Shown here: positions 26,990-30,772 of the stretch, piece after piece | How positions within the stretch are numbered: the first letter of the stretch is position 1 | Layout: each line of letters starts with the position of its first letter | Source of the DNA: Dehalococcoidia bacterium | Lineage (GTDB): Bacteria > Chloroflexota > Dehalococcoidia > Lucifugimonadales > VXLM01 | Direction: 5' to 3' | Length of the DNA: 64,000 nucleotides | NCBI GenBank assembly: GCA_965116655.1 | Contig: OZ220720.1 | Coordinates: forward strand, 434,319 to 498,318 | Made by a program: the position numbers and the translations under genes | Notes under the pieces: generated by a model | What the model was told of the DNA's origin: nothing | The model's database searches: none | The model's input: the letters and a program-made list of their open reading frames with translations, nothing else

Positions 26990-29900
26990 ATGTCCTTCAT
27001 TTCAAGTCTTTTTGACTCCTCAATGTTCACTGGCCTGAGAACGCCTATTCTCATCCTCGTCATCGTCTCCTCCCTCGCGCTCAGTGCGGGCGACGTTGGA
27101 GGACAGACCGTTGAAGACGACCACGGCGACTCGTACGAAACAGCCACGCTAGTAGAGTTGGGTTCTTCGGTGGACGGCCGCATCGATCCCGGCGACGATC
27201 GTGATGTATTCAAGATCGACCTGTCGGACGCATCCGGAGACACCGACCTTTGGGTGTACACATATAACCCGGACCAAGATGTCCCGTTCGACACCTTTGG
27301 CGGACTATACGACAGTGTCGGCAATCTCATTGAACTCAACGATGACGGGTTCCTTCGGGACTCCCTACGCAGCTTCGGTATAAGGAGCGTCGTTCCGCCA
27401 GGTGTTTACTATGTGATTGTGGTCGGTTACTCCGGCGATCCGGGGGACTACACCTTCTATGCTCAGGTAGTGGACAACCCTGGAAGCACCATCGAAACTG
27501 CAAAGCCTCTGGTTCTTGGCACGCAAGACGGTGGGCGGATCGATACCCTGGATGACGCGGATTTCTTCAAGCTCGATTTCACTGAATCCAGCCATGTGAT
27601 CATCGACGCTCGGAGCGCGGACGTCTCGCCGCTGGACGCTGTTCTGCTTGACGCCGACGGCGAAGAGATTTCCTCCAATTTCGCGCCGCTGCGACTAAGG
27701 GGATTCGGGGCCCTCTTTCCAATCGGATTCAACATTGCGGAGGACTTCGAGCCAGGCACGTACTACCTCAAGGTGACGAGCCCGTTCGCACCCGAGCCTG
27801 GTGATGAGGAGTCCGAAGAACCATCACTTCCCTTTAGGTCCAATCCTTACTCCCTGTTCTTCCTCGAAGATATGGATTACATCGAAATTCTTGAAGACTG
27901 CGAGACTCAAACTGACGCGCTGAACGATCCGCAAATCAACGATCCGCTGTACGCATGCCAGTGGCACCTGAGCAGTGCCGAGAGGCAGGATATCAATCTC
28001 GGATCCGCTTGGGCCGACGGCGTCAAGGGTGAGGGTATCAATGTCGCCATTGTCGACGACGGAATGTACCACGCCCACGAAGACCTGCAGGGCAACGTCG
28101 ACGTTGATCTCAGCTTCGACTACGGCGGAAACGAAGACATCTATGATCGATTTGAGCACCACGGCACTCACGTTTCCGGCATTGTTGCGGGCAGAGACAA
28201 CGACATAGGCGTGCGCGGTGTGGCCCCTCGGGCAACGGTGTACGGTTACAACTTCCTCGGAGGACGAAACAGCACAGTATTGAACCTCCTCGACGCAATG
28301 ACCCGAAATGCCGAGGAAACCGCCGTGTCCAACAACAGCTGGGGTTGGTCAGACGGCCCGGGGCTTAGCCCATCCCTGTCGTTCTGGAGACAGGCCATAA
28401 GGTACGGAACCACGTTTGGATACGACGGCAAGGGCACGTTCTATGCATTTGCCGCCGGCAACGGACACCTTTTGGGTGATGACTCCAATCTTGAGGAATA
28501 CAGTAACGACTACGGTGTGACAGCCGCGTGTTCCGTGAATAAGGAAGGCACCAGGGCAGGATACTCGGAAATGGGCGCTAACCTGTGGGTCTGCGCACCT
28601 TCAAACGACCGTCCGAGCAATCTTGGCGGAGTCAACGGCATCCTGACGACCGAGAATTCCGATCGCTACTACCATGACTTCGGTGGCACCTCCGCCGCAG
28701 CCCCCATTGTCTCGGGGGTCGCGGCGCTTACGCGTGACGCCAACACCGAGCTCACGTGGCGCGACGTCAAGGTGATTCTCGCCGCGTCCGCCCAGAAAAA
28801 CGATCTCGAAAGCCCCGGGTGGGATGACGGAGCGCCCATGCATCCCGTCTCCTCTACGGACAGGTACTCCTTCAACCATGAGTATGGCTTTGGCGTGGTC
28901 AACGCCGAAGGCGCCGTCGACCTTGCGAAGCGATGGACGAACCTGCCTACCTCGCAGAGTACAACTGTACAATCGGATCTGCTTGGTGTAACAATTCCCG
29001 ACGCCTCTACTGATGGAGACCCGTCGACATTCACACACACGCTCACTCTGGACTCCGGCATTGGATTTACCGAATTTGTCGAGGTCACCGTGAGCTTCGA
29101 ACACGACTCCTTCCGCGACCTGGAAATCCTGCTGGAGTCGCCTTCCGGGGCCATTTCAAGAATTGCCGTTCCGTTCAACACTTATGACGCCCTCAACGCC
29201 TTCTTTGGGTTCGCCTTTGAACCGTTGCATGGATCTTTCCAGTTTGGGTCGTCTAAGCACCTGGGAGAAGACCCCAACGGTGAGTGGAAGCTTCATGTGA
29301 CCGACCGCATTCCCTCCGTGGACGGTACCTTCGTTGGCTTTGGCATAACCGTCTACGGACACGAGCGCGCTCCGGGTGTCCCAACCTTGGACTCAGTGGA
29401 GGTCCATCCGGGCGGAGGGATGCTCGACGTAGATTGGGCCGCTCCTGATGAGAACGGAGATTCCGACATTGTCTCCTACGATGTGCGCTATAGCGAGGCC
29501 GATGCCGATCAGACGGATCCCGCTAGCTGGACCGTTCTGAAAAGCATCTGGACGGCCGACTCTGGTGAAGCGCAGGGATACACGATTACCGGCCTGACGG
29601 ACGGAACGCTGTACGACGTGCAGGTGCGGGCAGTAAACAGCGCGGGCGGCGGGCTGTGGTCGAATACACTAAGCGCAGGGCCGATGACGAGTTCCTGTGT
29701 AACCGATGGCGCCGTTACGGATAGGACCAACTCCGGGCTCATCTTCGACTGCGAGGCCTTGATCGAGGCGCGCGATACATTGGCGGGAAGCGCAACGCTG
29801 AACTGGTCAACCGACACGGACATTGCTAGGTGGGATGGCGCCTACCTTAGTAGCGAACCTCGTCGGGTGACGAATCTGGTCATCAGACGGAGCGAGTTGA

Positions 29901-30772
29901 ACGGGTCGATTCCGGCTTCGCTTGGTCGACTGGACGGGCTCGTTGAGCTGAACCTCCACAGCAACGAGTTGACTGGGAGCATCCCCACGGAGCTTGGCGA
30001 TCTAGCGAATCTGGAGAAACTGCTGCTCCATAACAACGACCTGACTGGATCGATTCCTGATCTGAGTAGCCTTAGTACCCTCAAGATGCTGTGGCTCTCC
30101 GGCAATGACTTGGGTAGAGGCGAGGGGGTACCGACGTGGCTAAACTCGCTGAGCAATCTCGAGTCGCTCAGTCTGTGGGGCAACAGAATGGGTGGCCCGA
30201 TTCCGGACCTCAGTGGAATGACGAGTCTGAGATTGCTGAAGCTTCAGAGCACCGGTCTGACCGGAGAAATCCCGGCGTCCATCGGTGATATGGACAGTCT
30301 CTGGGGTCTGTACTTACATAGGAACAGCTTGAGTGGGGAGATACCGGAAGAGCTTGGTCAACTTACCAACCTTAGGCGGATTTGGCTCCACACAAACAAC
30401 TTGACCGGAAATATTCCATCCGAGTTGAGCGGCATGACCGGCCTCGTGGACTTGAACCTTCGCGACAACCGTTTGAGCGGACCGATTCCTGCAGAGTTGG
30501 GTGCGATGACCAGCTTAGAGTCGTTGCGACTCCACAATAACCAGTTGAGTGGGTCTATCCCGAAGGAACTGGGTGACCTAGACAACTTGACGGGACTCTG
30601 GCTCCAGGGGAATCGGCTGAGCGGCTCCATCCCGGCCGAGTTGGGCAATCTGGGCGATACTTTGACCCAGTGGCGGCTTCGGGACAACAGGTTGACCGGG
30701 TGCGTGCCGGCAGGTCTGGCAGCCGTGGAGGATAACGACATGGCCGCACTTGGCCTCCGACCATGTCCTTAG
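26990..30772 (+). CDS. Secreted multidomain kexin/furin-like S8 serine protease: signal peptide, 2x PPC (pre-peptidase C-terminal-type) domains, S8 catalytic domain, P-domain, FN3, plant-type LRR array
   Basis: Catalytic triad contexts VAIVDDG, HGTHVSG, GGTSAAAPIVSG. QWHL kexin-type entry. P-domain FVEVTVSFEHDSFRDLEILLESPSG...NGEWKLHVTD. FN3 YDVQVRAVNSAGGG. LRR consensus LxxLxLxxNxLxGxIPxxLGxL. Confidence 0.88.
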   Translation: MSFISSLFDSSMFTGLRTPILILVIVSSLALSAGDVGGQTVEDDHGDSYETATLVELGSSVDGRIDPGDDRDVFKIDLSDASGDTDLWVYTYNPDQDVPFDTFGGLYDSVGNLIELNDDGFLRDSLRSFGIRSVVPPGVYYVIVVGYSGDPGDYTFYAQVVDNPGSTIETAKPLVLGTQDGGRIDTLDDADFFKLDFTESSHVIIDARSADVSPLDAVLLDADGEEISSNFAPLRLRGFGALFPIGFNIAEDFEPGTYYLKVTSPFAPEPGDEESEEPSLPFRSNPYSLFFLEDMDYIEILEDCETQTDALNDPQINDPLYACQWHLSSAERQDINLGSAWADGVKGEGINVAIVDDGMYHAHEDLQGNVDVDLSFDYGGNEDIYDRFEHHGTHVSGIVAGRDNDIGVRGVAPRATVYGYNFLGGRNSTVLNLLDAMTRNAEETAVSNNSWGWSDGPGLSPSLSFWRQAIRYGTTFGYDGKGTFYAFAAGNGHLLGDDSNLEEYSNDYGVTAACSVNKEGTRAGYSEMGANLWVCAPSNDRPSNLGGVNGILTTENSDRYYHDFGGTSAAAPIVSGVAALTRDANTELTWRDVKVILAASAQKNDLESPGWDDGAPMHPVSSTDRYSFNHEYGFGVVNAEGAVDLAKRWTNLPTSQSTTVQSDLLGVTIPDASTDGDPSTFTHTLTLDSGIGFTEFVEVTVSFEHDSFRDLEILLESPSGAISRIAVPFNTYDALNAFFGFAFEPLHGSFQFGSSKHLGEDPNGEWKLHVTDRIPSVDGTFVGFGITVYGHERAPGVPTLDSVEVHPGGGMLDVDWAAPDENGDSDIVSYDVRYSEADADQTDPASWTVLKSIWTADSGEAQGYTITGLTDGTLYDVQVRAVNSAGGGLWSNTLSAGPMTSSCVTDGAVTDRTNSGLIFDCEALIEARDTLAGSATLNWSTDTDIARWDGAYLSSEPRRVTNLVIRRSELNGSIPASLGRLDGLVELNLHSNELTGSIPTELGDLANLEKLLLHNNDLTGSIPDLSSLSTLKMLWLSGNDLGRGEGVPTWLNSLSNLESLSLWGNRMGGPIPDLSGMTSLRLLKLQSTGLTGEIPASIGDMDSLWGLYLHRNSLSGEIPEELGQLTNLRRIWLHTNNLTGNIPSELSGMTGLVDLNLRDNRLSGPIPAELGAMTSLESLRLHNNQLSGSIPKELGDLDNLTGLWLQGNRLSGSIPAELGNLGDTLTQWRLRDNRLTGCVPAGLAAVEDNDMAALGLRPCP
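29744..30769 (+). repeat. Coding tandem repeats (about 72-nt / 24-aa period): plant-specific-type leucine-rich repeats with N-terminal cap
   Basis: About 13 successive units such as LVELNLHSNELTGSIPTELGDLAN and LEKLLLHNNDLTGSIPDLSSLST, preceded by the cap CEALIEARDTLAGSATLNWSTDTDIARWDG. Confidence 0.85.

Follow-up and report, generated by a model that had tools for sequence, protein, structure and literature searches.

A kexin-type protease with collagen-binding-type and leucine-rich repeat modules and its conserved upstream partner gene in sponge-associated Dehalococcoidia

Proprotein convertases of the kexin/furin type (MEROPS subfamily S8B) combine an S8 catalytic domain, with the triad order Asp-His-Ser and an oxyanion Asn, with a P-domain and with a cis prodomain that undergoes autocleavage at a basic site. 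Folding assistance by a separate protein is illustrated by the Lif foldase of Pseudomonas and Burkholderia, a membrane-anchored steric chaperone found beside its single secreted client. The kexin-like subtilase ASP of Aeromonas sobria is reportedly called propeptide-deficient in the title of its primary structural study (JBC 2015;290:11130, as cited by the ASP paper quoted next), and its partner, ORF2, is a soluble, periplasmic protein of a Gram-negative host. ASP needs the adjacent ORF2 to reach its active form; the C-terminal Lys of ORF2 lies at the catalytic Ser of ASP, which ORF2 inhibits with a half-maximal inhibitory concentration of ~84 nM (PMC5638518). In sponge symbionts, eukaryotic-like proteins with leucine-rich repeat (LRR), fibronectin type III (FN3), or cadherin repeats have been proposed to mediate host-microbe interaction (PMC6306507). 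The present work deals with a protease gene located in a stretch of 64,000 nucleotides (hereafter the window: positions 434,319 to 498,318 of the forward strand of contig OZ220720.1, assembly GCA_965116655.1) from a Dehalococcoidia bacterium (Chloroflexota). This gene is one half of a two-gene module, shared with an upstream partner gene, in sponge-associated Dehalococcoidia. The partner is read here as a membrane-tethered trans propeptide, or chaperone-inhibitor, for a matrix-targeted kexin-type protease, a model to which, taken as a whole, a probability of roughly 0.55 is assigned.

The protease is encoded by an ATG-started open reading frame (ORF) of 1260 residues, as a first-pass annotation of the same DNA, made from the sequence alone, had proposed (Table 1). 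Its domains follow one another in the order signal peptide, two beta-sandwiches of the PPC/collagen-binding type, S8 catalytic domain, P-domain, FN3 domain, and 12 LRRs. The partner gene lies directly upstream, and this arrangement, with the partner ending within ~200 nt of the protease start, is found in 22 of 27 related loci; the linkage persists where all other synteny is gone. In size, the partner family is comparable to that of the protease: 1014 homologues and 945 clusters at 50% identity were obtained for the partner, and 844 significant homologues by the protein search with the protease. No Pfam or NCBIfam family matched the partner at E <= 10, and its gene had been overlooked in the first-pass annotation.

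Both genes probably form one transcription unit. A GGAG-like Shine-Dalgarno sequence is found 9-14 nt 5' of the protease start. Sponge metatranscriptome contigs (85-97% identity, low depth) cover both genes, and the junction between them is covered by contigs spanning 26723-26995 and 26808-26995, DNA carry-over being possible in both cases. Promoter and terminator scans gave no signal beyond shuffled expectation, and no second copy of the protease is present within the 64-kb window.

Among all PDB entries, the best solved relatives of the protease are kexin and furin (E ~1e-43 over residues 313-798), with alignments that extend through the P-domain, end to end. Weaker matches were obtained with the bacterial kexin-like ASP (E 5.5e-35) and with ordinary subtilisins (1e-15). 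Pfam places Peptidase_S8 (PF00082) at residues 347-613, above the curated cut-off (E 6.6e-40), and P_proprotein (PF01483) at residues 695-787 (E 1.3e-13, 51.3 bits versus a 21-bit cut-off). Both the proprotein-convertase character of the S8 domain and the P-domain, as proposed in the first-pass annotation, are borne out by these matches, and the motifs on which it had relied are located at residues 352 (VAIVDDG), 391 (HGTHVSG), and 565 (GGTSAAAP).

The active site can be followed residue by residue, since furin D153/D154 map to D356/D357 of the protease, H194 to H391, N295 to N491, and S368 to S568. In an alignment of 52 family members, D356, N491, and S568 are each present in all 52, and H391 in 51, a conservation from which the protease is predicted to be an active, catalytically competent enzyme. 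In the substrate pocket, the furin S1 residue D306 corresponds to E502, Y308 to Y504, and D301 to D497, while D455 is the equivalent of furin D258/259, in the DDG loop at the S1 entrance, where gap placement is ambiguous. E389 occupies the position of the P2-contacting Asp of kexin. The acidic candidates for S1 and S2 are, in the protease sequence, D357, E389, D455, D497, and E502; D357 and D455 are kept in 51 of the 52 family members, D497 in all of them, and position 502, as Glu or Asp, in 47. For the furin S4 residues E236 and D264, no conserved equivalents were found in the protease alignment. Judged from this pocket, cleavage after Lys or Arg at P1, with a kexin-like preference, is most likely.

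The protease thus shares with the S8B subfamily the triad order, the oxyanion Asn, and the P-domain, together with the DDG motif and sequence equivalents of the acidic S1 residues of Kex2 and furin and of the P2-contacting acids of kexin, but not the cis prodomain with its autocleavage. No Inhibitor_I9 or S8_pro-domain match was found anywhere in the protein by Pfam, and two PPC/collagen-binding-domain (CBD) folds occupy its N-terminus (residues 37-293), where the S8B cis prodomain is expected. The dibasic autoprocessing site and the Cys-rich or transmembrane C-terminus of kexin and furin are also lacking, and the other flanking domains and the organism differ. The lack of a detectable cis propeptide, combined with the analogy to ASP/ORF2, points to a trans-encoded, propeptide-like partner.

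This analogy (PDB 3HJR, 3WQB) lies in a kexin-like S8 domain with a P-domain and in a small adjacent gene. Nevertheless, ORF2 is encoded downstream of its protease, whereas the window partner is encoded upstream; the window partner has a probable membrane-anchor segment and a linker that set it apart from ORF2; the two partners share no sequence similarity that could be detected; and the window protease is nearer to kexin and furin than to ASP. To our knowledge, ASP does not carry the PPC, FN3, and LRR modules of the window protease. Lif, with its all-helical, unrelated fold and its lipase client, offers a functional analogy only.

The partner protein starts with a hydrophobic segment preceded by Lys/Arg, which can be read either as a signal anchor (N-in, according to the positive-inside rule) or as a long signal peptide with a cleavage site between ALA and S. 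The linker that follows accommodates insertions of up to ~150 residues in homologues, and its AlphaFold prediction has a local distance difference test score (pLDDT) below 50. In the model, the conserved domain has a beta-rich part (residues 89-155) and then a beta-alpha-beta-beta-alpha-beta unit (160-225), beyond which a flexible tail ends in PNWWNEVKSR; pLDDT is 70-97 over residues 90-230 and falls at the tail. Throughout the family, tails read SSPNWWxEVEAK or end in EVKSR. Close homologues whose end is intact number 118, and every one of them has Lys (97) or Arg (21) as its last residue. When the family is reduced to its unfused representatives at 50% identity, the first residue of PNW precedes the stop codon by exactly 10 residues in all 134, and 113 of these end in Lys or Arg.

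In five other representatives (P0256, P0260, P0261, P0262, and P0272), the partner domain is found inside a larger protein, at its N-terminal end. P0261, a continuous ORF on a 90-kb contig, contains the partner domain (84-282), several PPC-like domains, an S8 domain (863-1150), and a P-domain; P0260 contains the partner domain (126-284), an S8 domain (704-989), and a P-domain, followed by CARDB, FN3, and cadherin arrays. The basic residue at the end of the partner domain is kept in four of the five fusions, where a tail such as NWWREIEAR runs into a linker (QDPGETKGDD). The partner domain, therefore, occurs in two settings: on its own in a membrane-anchored protein, or at the N-terminus of a protease of this type, in the position of a subtilase propeptide. 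Some of these fusions are giant proteins (3846 aa for P0260, 5724 aa for P0262). One fusion gene (L029:6001-9861, on a 5x long-read contig) has giant cadherin, CARDB, and LRR proteins as neighbours, and its 3' end is apparently frameshifted. An overlap of partner and protease at locus L026, considered as a further fusion, was rejected, as it consists of three separate genes.

The modules flanking the catalytic core bear on where the protease may act. Its signal segment is the least conserved stretch of the protein, strong conservation being seen from GGQTVEDDHG onward, and the mature end lies probably between LSAG and DVGGQT. At relaxed Pfam thresholds, PPC (PF04151) matches the first N-terminal domain below threshold (18.4 bits versus a 25.9 cut-off) and does not match the second; precomputed PF04151 matches are present in some homologues. 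Comparison by hhalign shows the two domains to be homologous (probability 95.8%, E 6.9e-9). AlphaFold models residues 37-312 (pLDDT 87, predicted template modelling (TM) score 0.81) as two beta-sandwiches with a strand returning to the second, and then a helix, whose C304 is invariant across the family. C304 belongs to a set of Cys conserved in the family, which includes C903/C921 and C1238/C1259. The top Foldseek match of the tandem is the ColG tandem CBD s3a-s3b (5iku, E 1e-11). Single-domain matches, at TM-scores of 0.7-0.77, are the ColH CBD 3jqw (0.71), 1nqd (0.76-0.77), and the Bacillus anthracis PPC domain 5sv5 (0.77, with a root-mean-square deviation of 2.6). The two PPC-type domains suggested at first pass, sub-threshold in Pfam, are thus backed by hhalign, AlphaFold, and Foldseek, and, as modelled, the tandem resembles a collagen-binding tandem more specifically. 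Unlike in ColG and ColH, where the tandem is C-terminal to an M9 collagenase, it is here N-terminal to an S8 protease, and its sequence identity to the clostridial CBDs is 16-21%.

Behind the P-domain, fn3 (PF00041) is found at residues 812-895 (E 2e-11, 44.4 bits versus a 25-bit cut-off), in agreement with the FN3 module announced by the first-pass annotation. The LRR block is matched above cut-offs by Pfam LRR_1, LRR_4, LRR_8, and LRR_14, roughly over residues 958-1213, with the conserved pair C903/C921 ahead of the repeats and C1238/C1259 at the C-terminal end. Segmentation yields 12 repeats, instead of the about 13 first counted, starting at residues 960, 984, 1008, 1031, 1057, 1080, 1104, 1128, 1152, 1176, 1200, and 1225; the spacing is exactly 24 residues in 7 of the 11 measurable cases, with the consensus LxxLxLxxNxLtGxIPxeLGxLxx, in which G13, I15, P16, and L19 are nearly invariant. 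Such a 24-residue GxIP repeat matches the definition of the plant-specific LRR class (PMC5976695). The best PDB matches of the block are plant LRR receptor kinases (GSO1, FLS2, MIK2, and PEPR1), and its N-cap segment (LNWSTDTDIARWDGAYLSSEPRRVTNL) can be aligned, in register, with those of GSO1, ERL1/2, TDR, PSKR1, and TMK1. With regard to the plant-type N-cap that had been proposed, this alignment stands, whereas the plant signature does not: LRRNT_2 (PF08263) has no match in the protease even at E <= 10, and the segment aligned to the plant CxWxGVxC reads RWDGAYL, without cysteines. Pfam found no Pkinase domain, and the protein stops 12 residues past the last LRR. Compared with the ectodomains of plant LRR receptor-like kinases and receptor-like proteins, the window protein has in common the 24-residue repeat, the in-register N-cap, and Cys-containing caps at both ends, but it lacks a kinase, a transmembrane helix, the LRRNT_2 signature, and an island domain, has only 12 repeats, and carries them on a protease.

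The concave face of the LRR array (repeat positions 2, 3, 5, 7, 8, and 10) is the most variable part of the protease, with an entropy of 2.0-2.6 bits against 0-0.6 for the framework. The ratio of nonsynonymous to synonymous substitution rates (dN/dS), calculated with dS near saturation, is 0.42 for this face, 0.10 for the LRR framework, and 0.13 for the protease. Variability of this kind would be expected if the face binds ligands and differs from one relative to another.

The resemblance to plant receptors invites the idea that the LRR block was recently acquired by horizontal transfer from a plant or alga, an origin that appears very improbable. It would account for a plant-specific repeat class and for plant receptor kinases being the best solved matches, a ranking biased by the richness of the PDB in plant receptors. 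The plant class is no evidence of transfer from plants, because Xanthomonas Xop effectors and Leptospira LIC proteins carry the same class. The LRR block matches the LIC LRR proteins and, below threshold, the NCBIfam models of XopAE, XopAC, and XopL, with scores so far under the cut-offs (86 versus 600 bits) that the protein is not a member of these families. The first-pass reading of plant-type LRRs, consequently, holds for the repeat class and not for its exclusivity to plants. The absence of LRRNT_2 and of plant-type cap cysteines also argues against such an origin, as does the presence of the block in homologues of a single bacterial lineage that are diverged and number in the hundreds. 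In GC content, the LRR part (0.573) is on a par with the rest of the gene (0.572) and comes close to the window (0.592); no compositional sign of recent transfer was seen.

The architecture is not a singleton. The S8, P-domain, and LRR core is present in all of the best 120 of the 844 homologues, and fn3 in nearly all of these, in proteins that fall into two size classes: ~1250 aa, and 1600-2200 aa, the longer class having additional modules (LRR, FN3, and cadherin-like). In a collection of species-representative genomes, 27 of 27 matches belong to Dehalococcoidia/Chloroflexota metagenome-assembled genomes (MAGs), several of which hold at least two protease paralogues. Isolate names such as APA_bin_48, SB0661_bin_13, and Langseth presumably denote sponge-derived MAG sets, and near-identical DNA occurs in sequencing runs that include 'sponge metagenome' samples. 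Names attached to the homologues are limited to 'kexin' and 'S8 family serine peptidase', the latter given by NCBI to one of them, and the literature searched on sponge Chloroflexi and eukaryotic-like proteins deals with LRR proteins in general, this architecture not being found there. The first-pass annotation, which knew of no characterised example, was right in this respect; the homologue searches further show that the architecture is common within one lineage. It is, in short, lineage-typical and uncharacterised.

What varies is mainly the C-terminus. At four loci (L014:7947-11075, L015, L016:7908-11120, and L017), relatives of ~1040-1070 aa have retained both the partner gene and the PPC-S8-P-FN3 core, and a cadherin domain (PF00028) stands at their end in place of the LRR array. 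The C-terminal module is thus exchangeable on a constant core, being LRR, cadherin, or, in the long forms, LRR followed by cadherin-like domains and more LRR. Two of these loci also contain a second, longer partner-family gene of ~340 aa, encoded on the opposite strand and located upstream of the pair by a few kb (L016:3615-4634 (-) and L017:3410-4441 (-)). The L019 protease carries, between its catalytic and P-domains, an acidic low-complexity insertion of ~45 residues (beginning EEEDAGDEGDAGEEGD) that is absent from the other orthologues compared. P0094 (2138 aa) shows a weak Por_Secre_tail match at residues 212-255, near the N-terminus, which is odd for a type IX sorting domain and may reflect a gene-call fusion or a different lineage.

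Taken together, these elements suggest the following working model, in which we infer the chaperone and inhibitor action, specificity, localisation, ligands, and substrates alike. The partner would be held at the outer side of the membrane by its N-terminal anchor and flexible linker, and would capture the protease as it emerges from the Sec channel. Its C-terminal domain would template the folding of the protease, and its terminal Lys or Arg would then occupy the S1 pocket in the manner of a cleavage product, keeping the enzyme inhibited. The protease would subsequently be released, or kept tethered at the cell surface, and the PPC/CBD tandem and FN3-LRR arm would direct it to a matrix, or to a protein ligand, within the sponge mesohyl for limited proteolysis at that site. 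Because the mesohyl is collagen-rich, the locus is read most economically as encoding a processing protease directed at matrix or host proteins. The proposal of the first-pass annotation, that the enzyme may cleave a bound partner or surface in a targeted way, is a reasonable one.

Several observations weigh against this model. The partner resembles propeptides in topology and not by homology, because only common folds and no sequence similarity were found: Foldseek of the partner model returned only generic ribosomal S6/RRM-type ferredoxin-like folds (E > 0.08), the partner profile gave no relevant match at E <= 10 against all PDB chain sequences (a set that presumably includes the ORF2 chain of 3WQB), and comparison with the subtilisin BPN' propeptide sequence gave an hhalign probability of 0.1%. 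The hydrophobic segment could be a signal peptide cleaved between ALA and S and not an anchor. Twenty-one of the 134 distant representatives (~16%) end, at the same tail length, in Gln, Asn, Glu, Ser, or Tyr, and the residue at P2 of the partner is Ala or Ser, despite the conserved kexin-like S2 acids of the protease. In the fusions, PPC domains separate the partner domain from the catalytic domain, unlike in classical propeptides, and three to four protease paralogues have no partner inside 8 kb. Collagen binding by the tandem is suggested by its fold likeness only, many PPC domains being non-binding. The dN/dS of 0.42 on the LRR face indicates faster evolution, positive selection not being demonstrated by it.

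Some of these observations would be explained if the partner were not a chaperone at all, serving only as a tether, as a dedicated (immunity-like) inhibitor, or as an unrelated co-transcribed surface protein, with the PPC tandem or P-domain sufficing for folding. The lack of homology to any propeptide, the paralogues without an adjacent partner, and the PPC domains interposed in the fusions all favour this explanation, which is nevertheless judged unlikely: linkage is tight across diverged loci, the partner has a fixed C-terminal length and ends in a basic residue, in keeping with the P1 preference predicted for the protease, N-terminal fusions join the domain to a protease of this type, and ASP/ORF2 provides a precedent for one protein that is both chaperone and temporary inhibitor. 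The most serious competitor, which is possible and yet well behind the trans-propeptide model, keeps the partner as a folding helper and makes the protease a nutritional exoprotease that digests sponge matrix or filtered organic matter, its PPC, FN3, and LRR modules acting in retention only. Expanded sets of subtilisin-like extracellular proteases that bear adhesive domains are reported from sponge symbionts and have been interpreted as a sign of mixotrophy (PMC6790972), degradation of dissolved organic matter has been ascribed to sponge Chloroflexi (PMC6306507), and an M19 dipeptidase gene lies two genes downstream in the window and in seven close loci. However, the catalytic domain, which belongs to the kexin/furin type of narrow specificity, with a P-domain and acidic residues at the predicted S1 and S2 positions, is not a broad subtilisin; the M19 gene, unlike the partner, is lost at most loci; and the hypervariable concave face of the LRRs fits specific ligands better.

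A less probable alternative than either, and a rather doubtful one, is that the protease matures secreted or surface proteins of its own cell, such as repeat proteins or an S-layer, with the LRR arm binding the bacterial envelope. Proprotein convertases process proteins by definition, and genomes of this lineage hold several paralogues, with giant cadherin, CARDB, and LRR surface proteins beside related genes; yet no candidate substrate gene is conserved beside the module, and the collagen-binding-type and cadherin modules point outward, to a matrix of eukaryotic type. The trans-propeptide model, with a protease directed at the sponge matrix, is retained as the preferred reading.

Table 1. Features of the protease locus and its surroundings (positions within the window; residue numbers refer to the encoded protein).
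Feature	Position	Strand	Basis or remark
Partner gene, 234 aa from second Met (listed ORF starts 26190)	26220..26924	+	Gene callers use the 234-aa form
Partner residues 7-33, 27-residue hydrophobic segment	26238..26318	+	Sequence; conserved in 31 homologues
Partner residues 34-85, acidic Pro-rich linker	26319..26474	+	Homologue alignment, AlphaFold
Partner residues 86-234, conserved extracytoplasmic domain	26475..26921	+	AlphaFold
Intergenic spacer, 65 nt, GGAG-like ribosome-binding site	26925..26989	+	Sequence
Protease gene, 1260 aa	26990..30772	+	ATG-started ORF
Sec-type signal peptide, residues 1-36	26990..27097	+	Read from sequence
Tandem PPC/collagen-binding-domain-type beta-sandwiches, residues 37-293 (~37-165, 166-293)	27098..27868	+	hhalign, AlphaFold, Foldseek
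Helix linking PPC tandem to catalytic domain, residues 294-312, with C304	27869..27925	+	AlphaFold (model residues 259-275)
S8 catalytic domain, kexin/furin type, residues 313-650	27926..28939	+	Pfam and PDB matches
Catalytic D356	28055-28057	+	Codon position checked
Catalytic H391	28160-28162	+	Codon position checked
Oxyanion N491	28460-28462	+	Codon position checked
Catalytic S568	28691-28693	+	Codon position checked
Proprotein-convertase P-domain, residues 651-800	28940..29389	+	PF01483 and kexin/furin alignments
Fibronectin type III domain, residues 801-900	29390..29689	+	PF00041
LRR N-terminal cap, residues 901-959, own Cys pair C903/C921	29690..29866	+	Alignment to plant caps
12 plant-specific-class LRRs, residues 960-1248	29867..30733	+	Repeat segmentation, PDB matches
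C-terminal cap end, residues 1249-1260 and stop	30734..30772	+	Sequence
GDSL-type lipase/acylhydrolase	30934-31611	+	Kept in 4 close loci
M19 membrane dipeptidase, two genes downstream of protease	31671-32852	+	Kept in 7 close loci
Two adjacent 594-aa ABC exporters, fused membrane and ATPase domains, heterodimer-type arrangement	33096-36661	-	Kept only in closest relative L004
Three tRNA genes	37037-37110, 43060-43133, 43151-43234	-	Window scan

The other genes around the pair (Table 1) were considered as functional partners and set aside: the radical S-adenosylmethionine (SAM) protein, the thiamine pyrophosphate (TPP) enzyme, the alpha/beta hydrolase, the GDSL lipase, the M19 dipeptidase, and the ABC (ATP-binding cassette) exporter are generic, and are syntenic only in close relatives. 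Neither the lipase nor the dipeptidase belongs to the conserved module. Apart from the tRNA genes, no rRNA or other Rfam family reached its gathering score in the window.

How the eukaryotic-like repeat proteins of sponge symbionts act is mostly unexplained. Surveys of such proteins count repeat domains, whereas the window locus couples them to a convertase-type protease; neither a coupling of this kind nor the partner gene was found described in the literature searched on these proteins. Precedents exist for the chemistry and for the general logic; new here, in sponge-associated Chloroflexota, are an unrelated partner family with a probable membrane anchor and targeting modules of eukaryote-like type. 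After ASP, the locus adds another, sequence-unrelated case in which a separate gene seemingly supplies the propeptide function of a convertase-like subtilase. Its partner, probably anchored and found in nature both fused and split, lends itself well to studies of how an intramolecular chaperone turns into a protein of its own. Should the tail reflect P1 specificity, partners with non-basic ends would be expected to pair with proteases of altered S1 pockets. More tentatively, and as a possibility that goes well beyond the model itself, the partner family may be a large set of unannotated, membrane-tethered trans propeptides whose last residue reports the P1 specificity of the cognate protease, and the protease-repeat fusions (LRR, cadherin) may serve symbionts as a toolkit for clipping specific matrix or receptor proteins of the sponge, by which residence in the host is established or maintained. 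The module would also offer a name for roughly a thousand 'hypothetical' proteins, and repeat modules carried by an enzyme of predictable chemistry, with predicted cleavage after basic residues, would give an assayable handle on the host-microbe interface.

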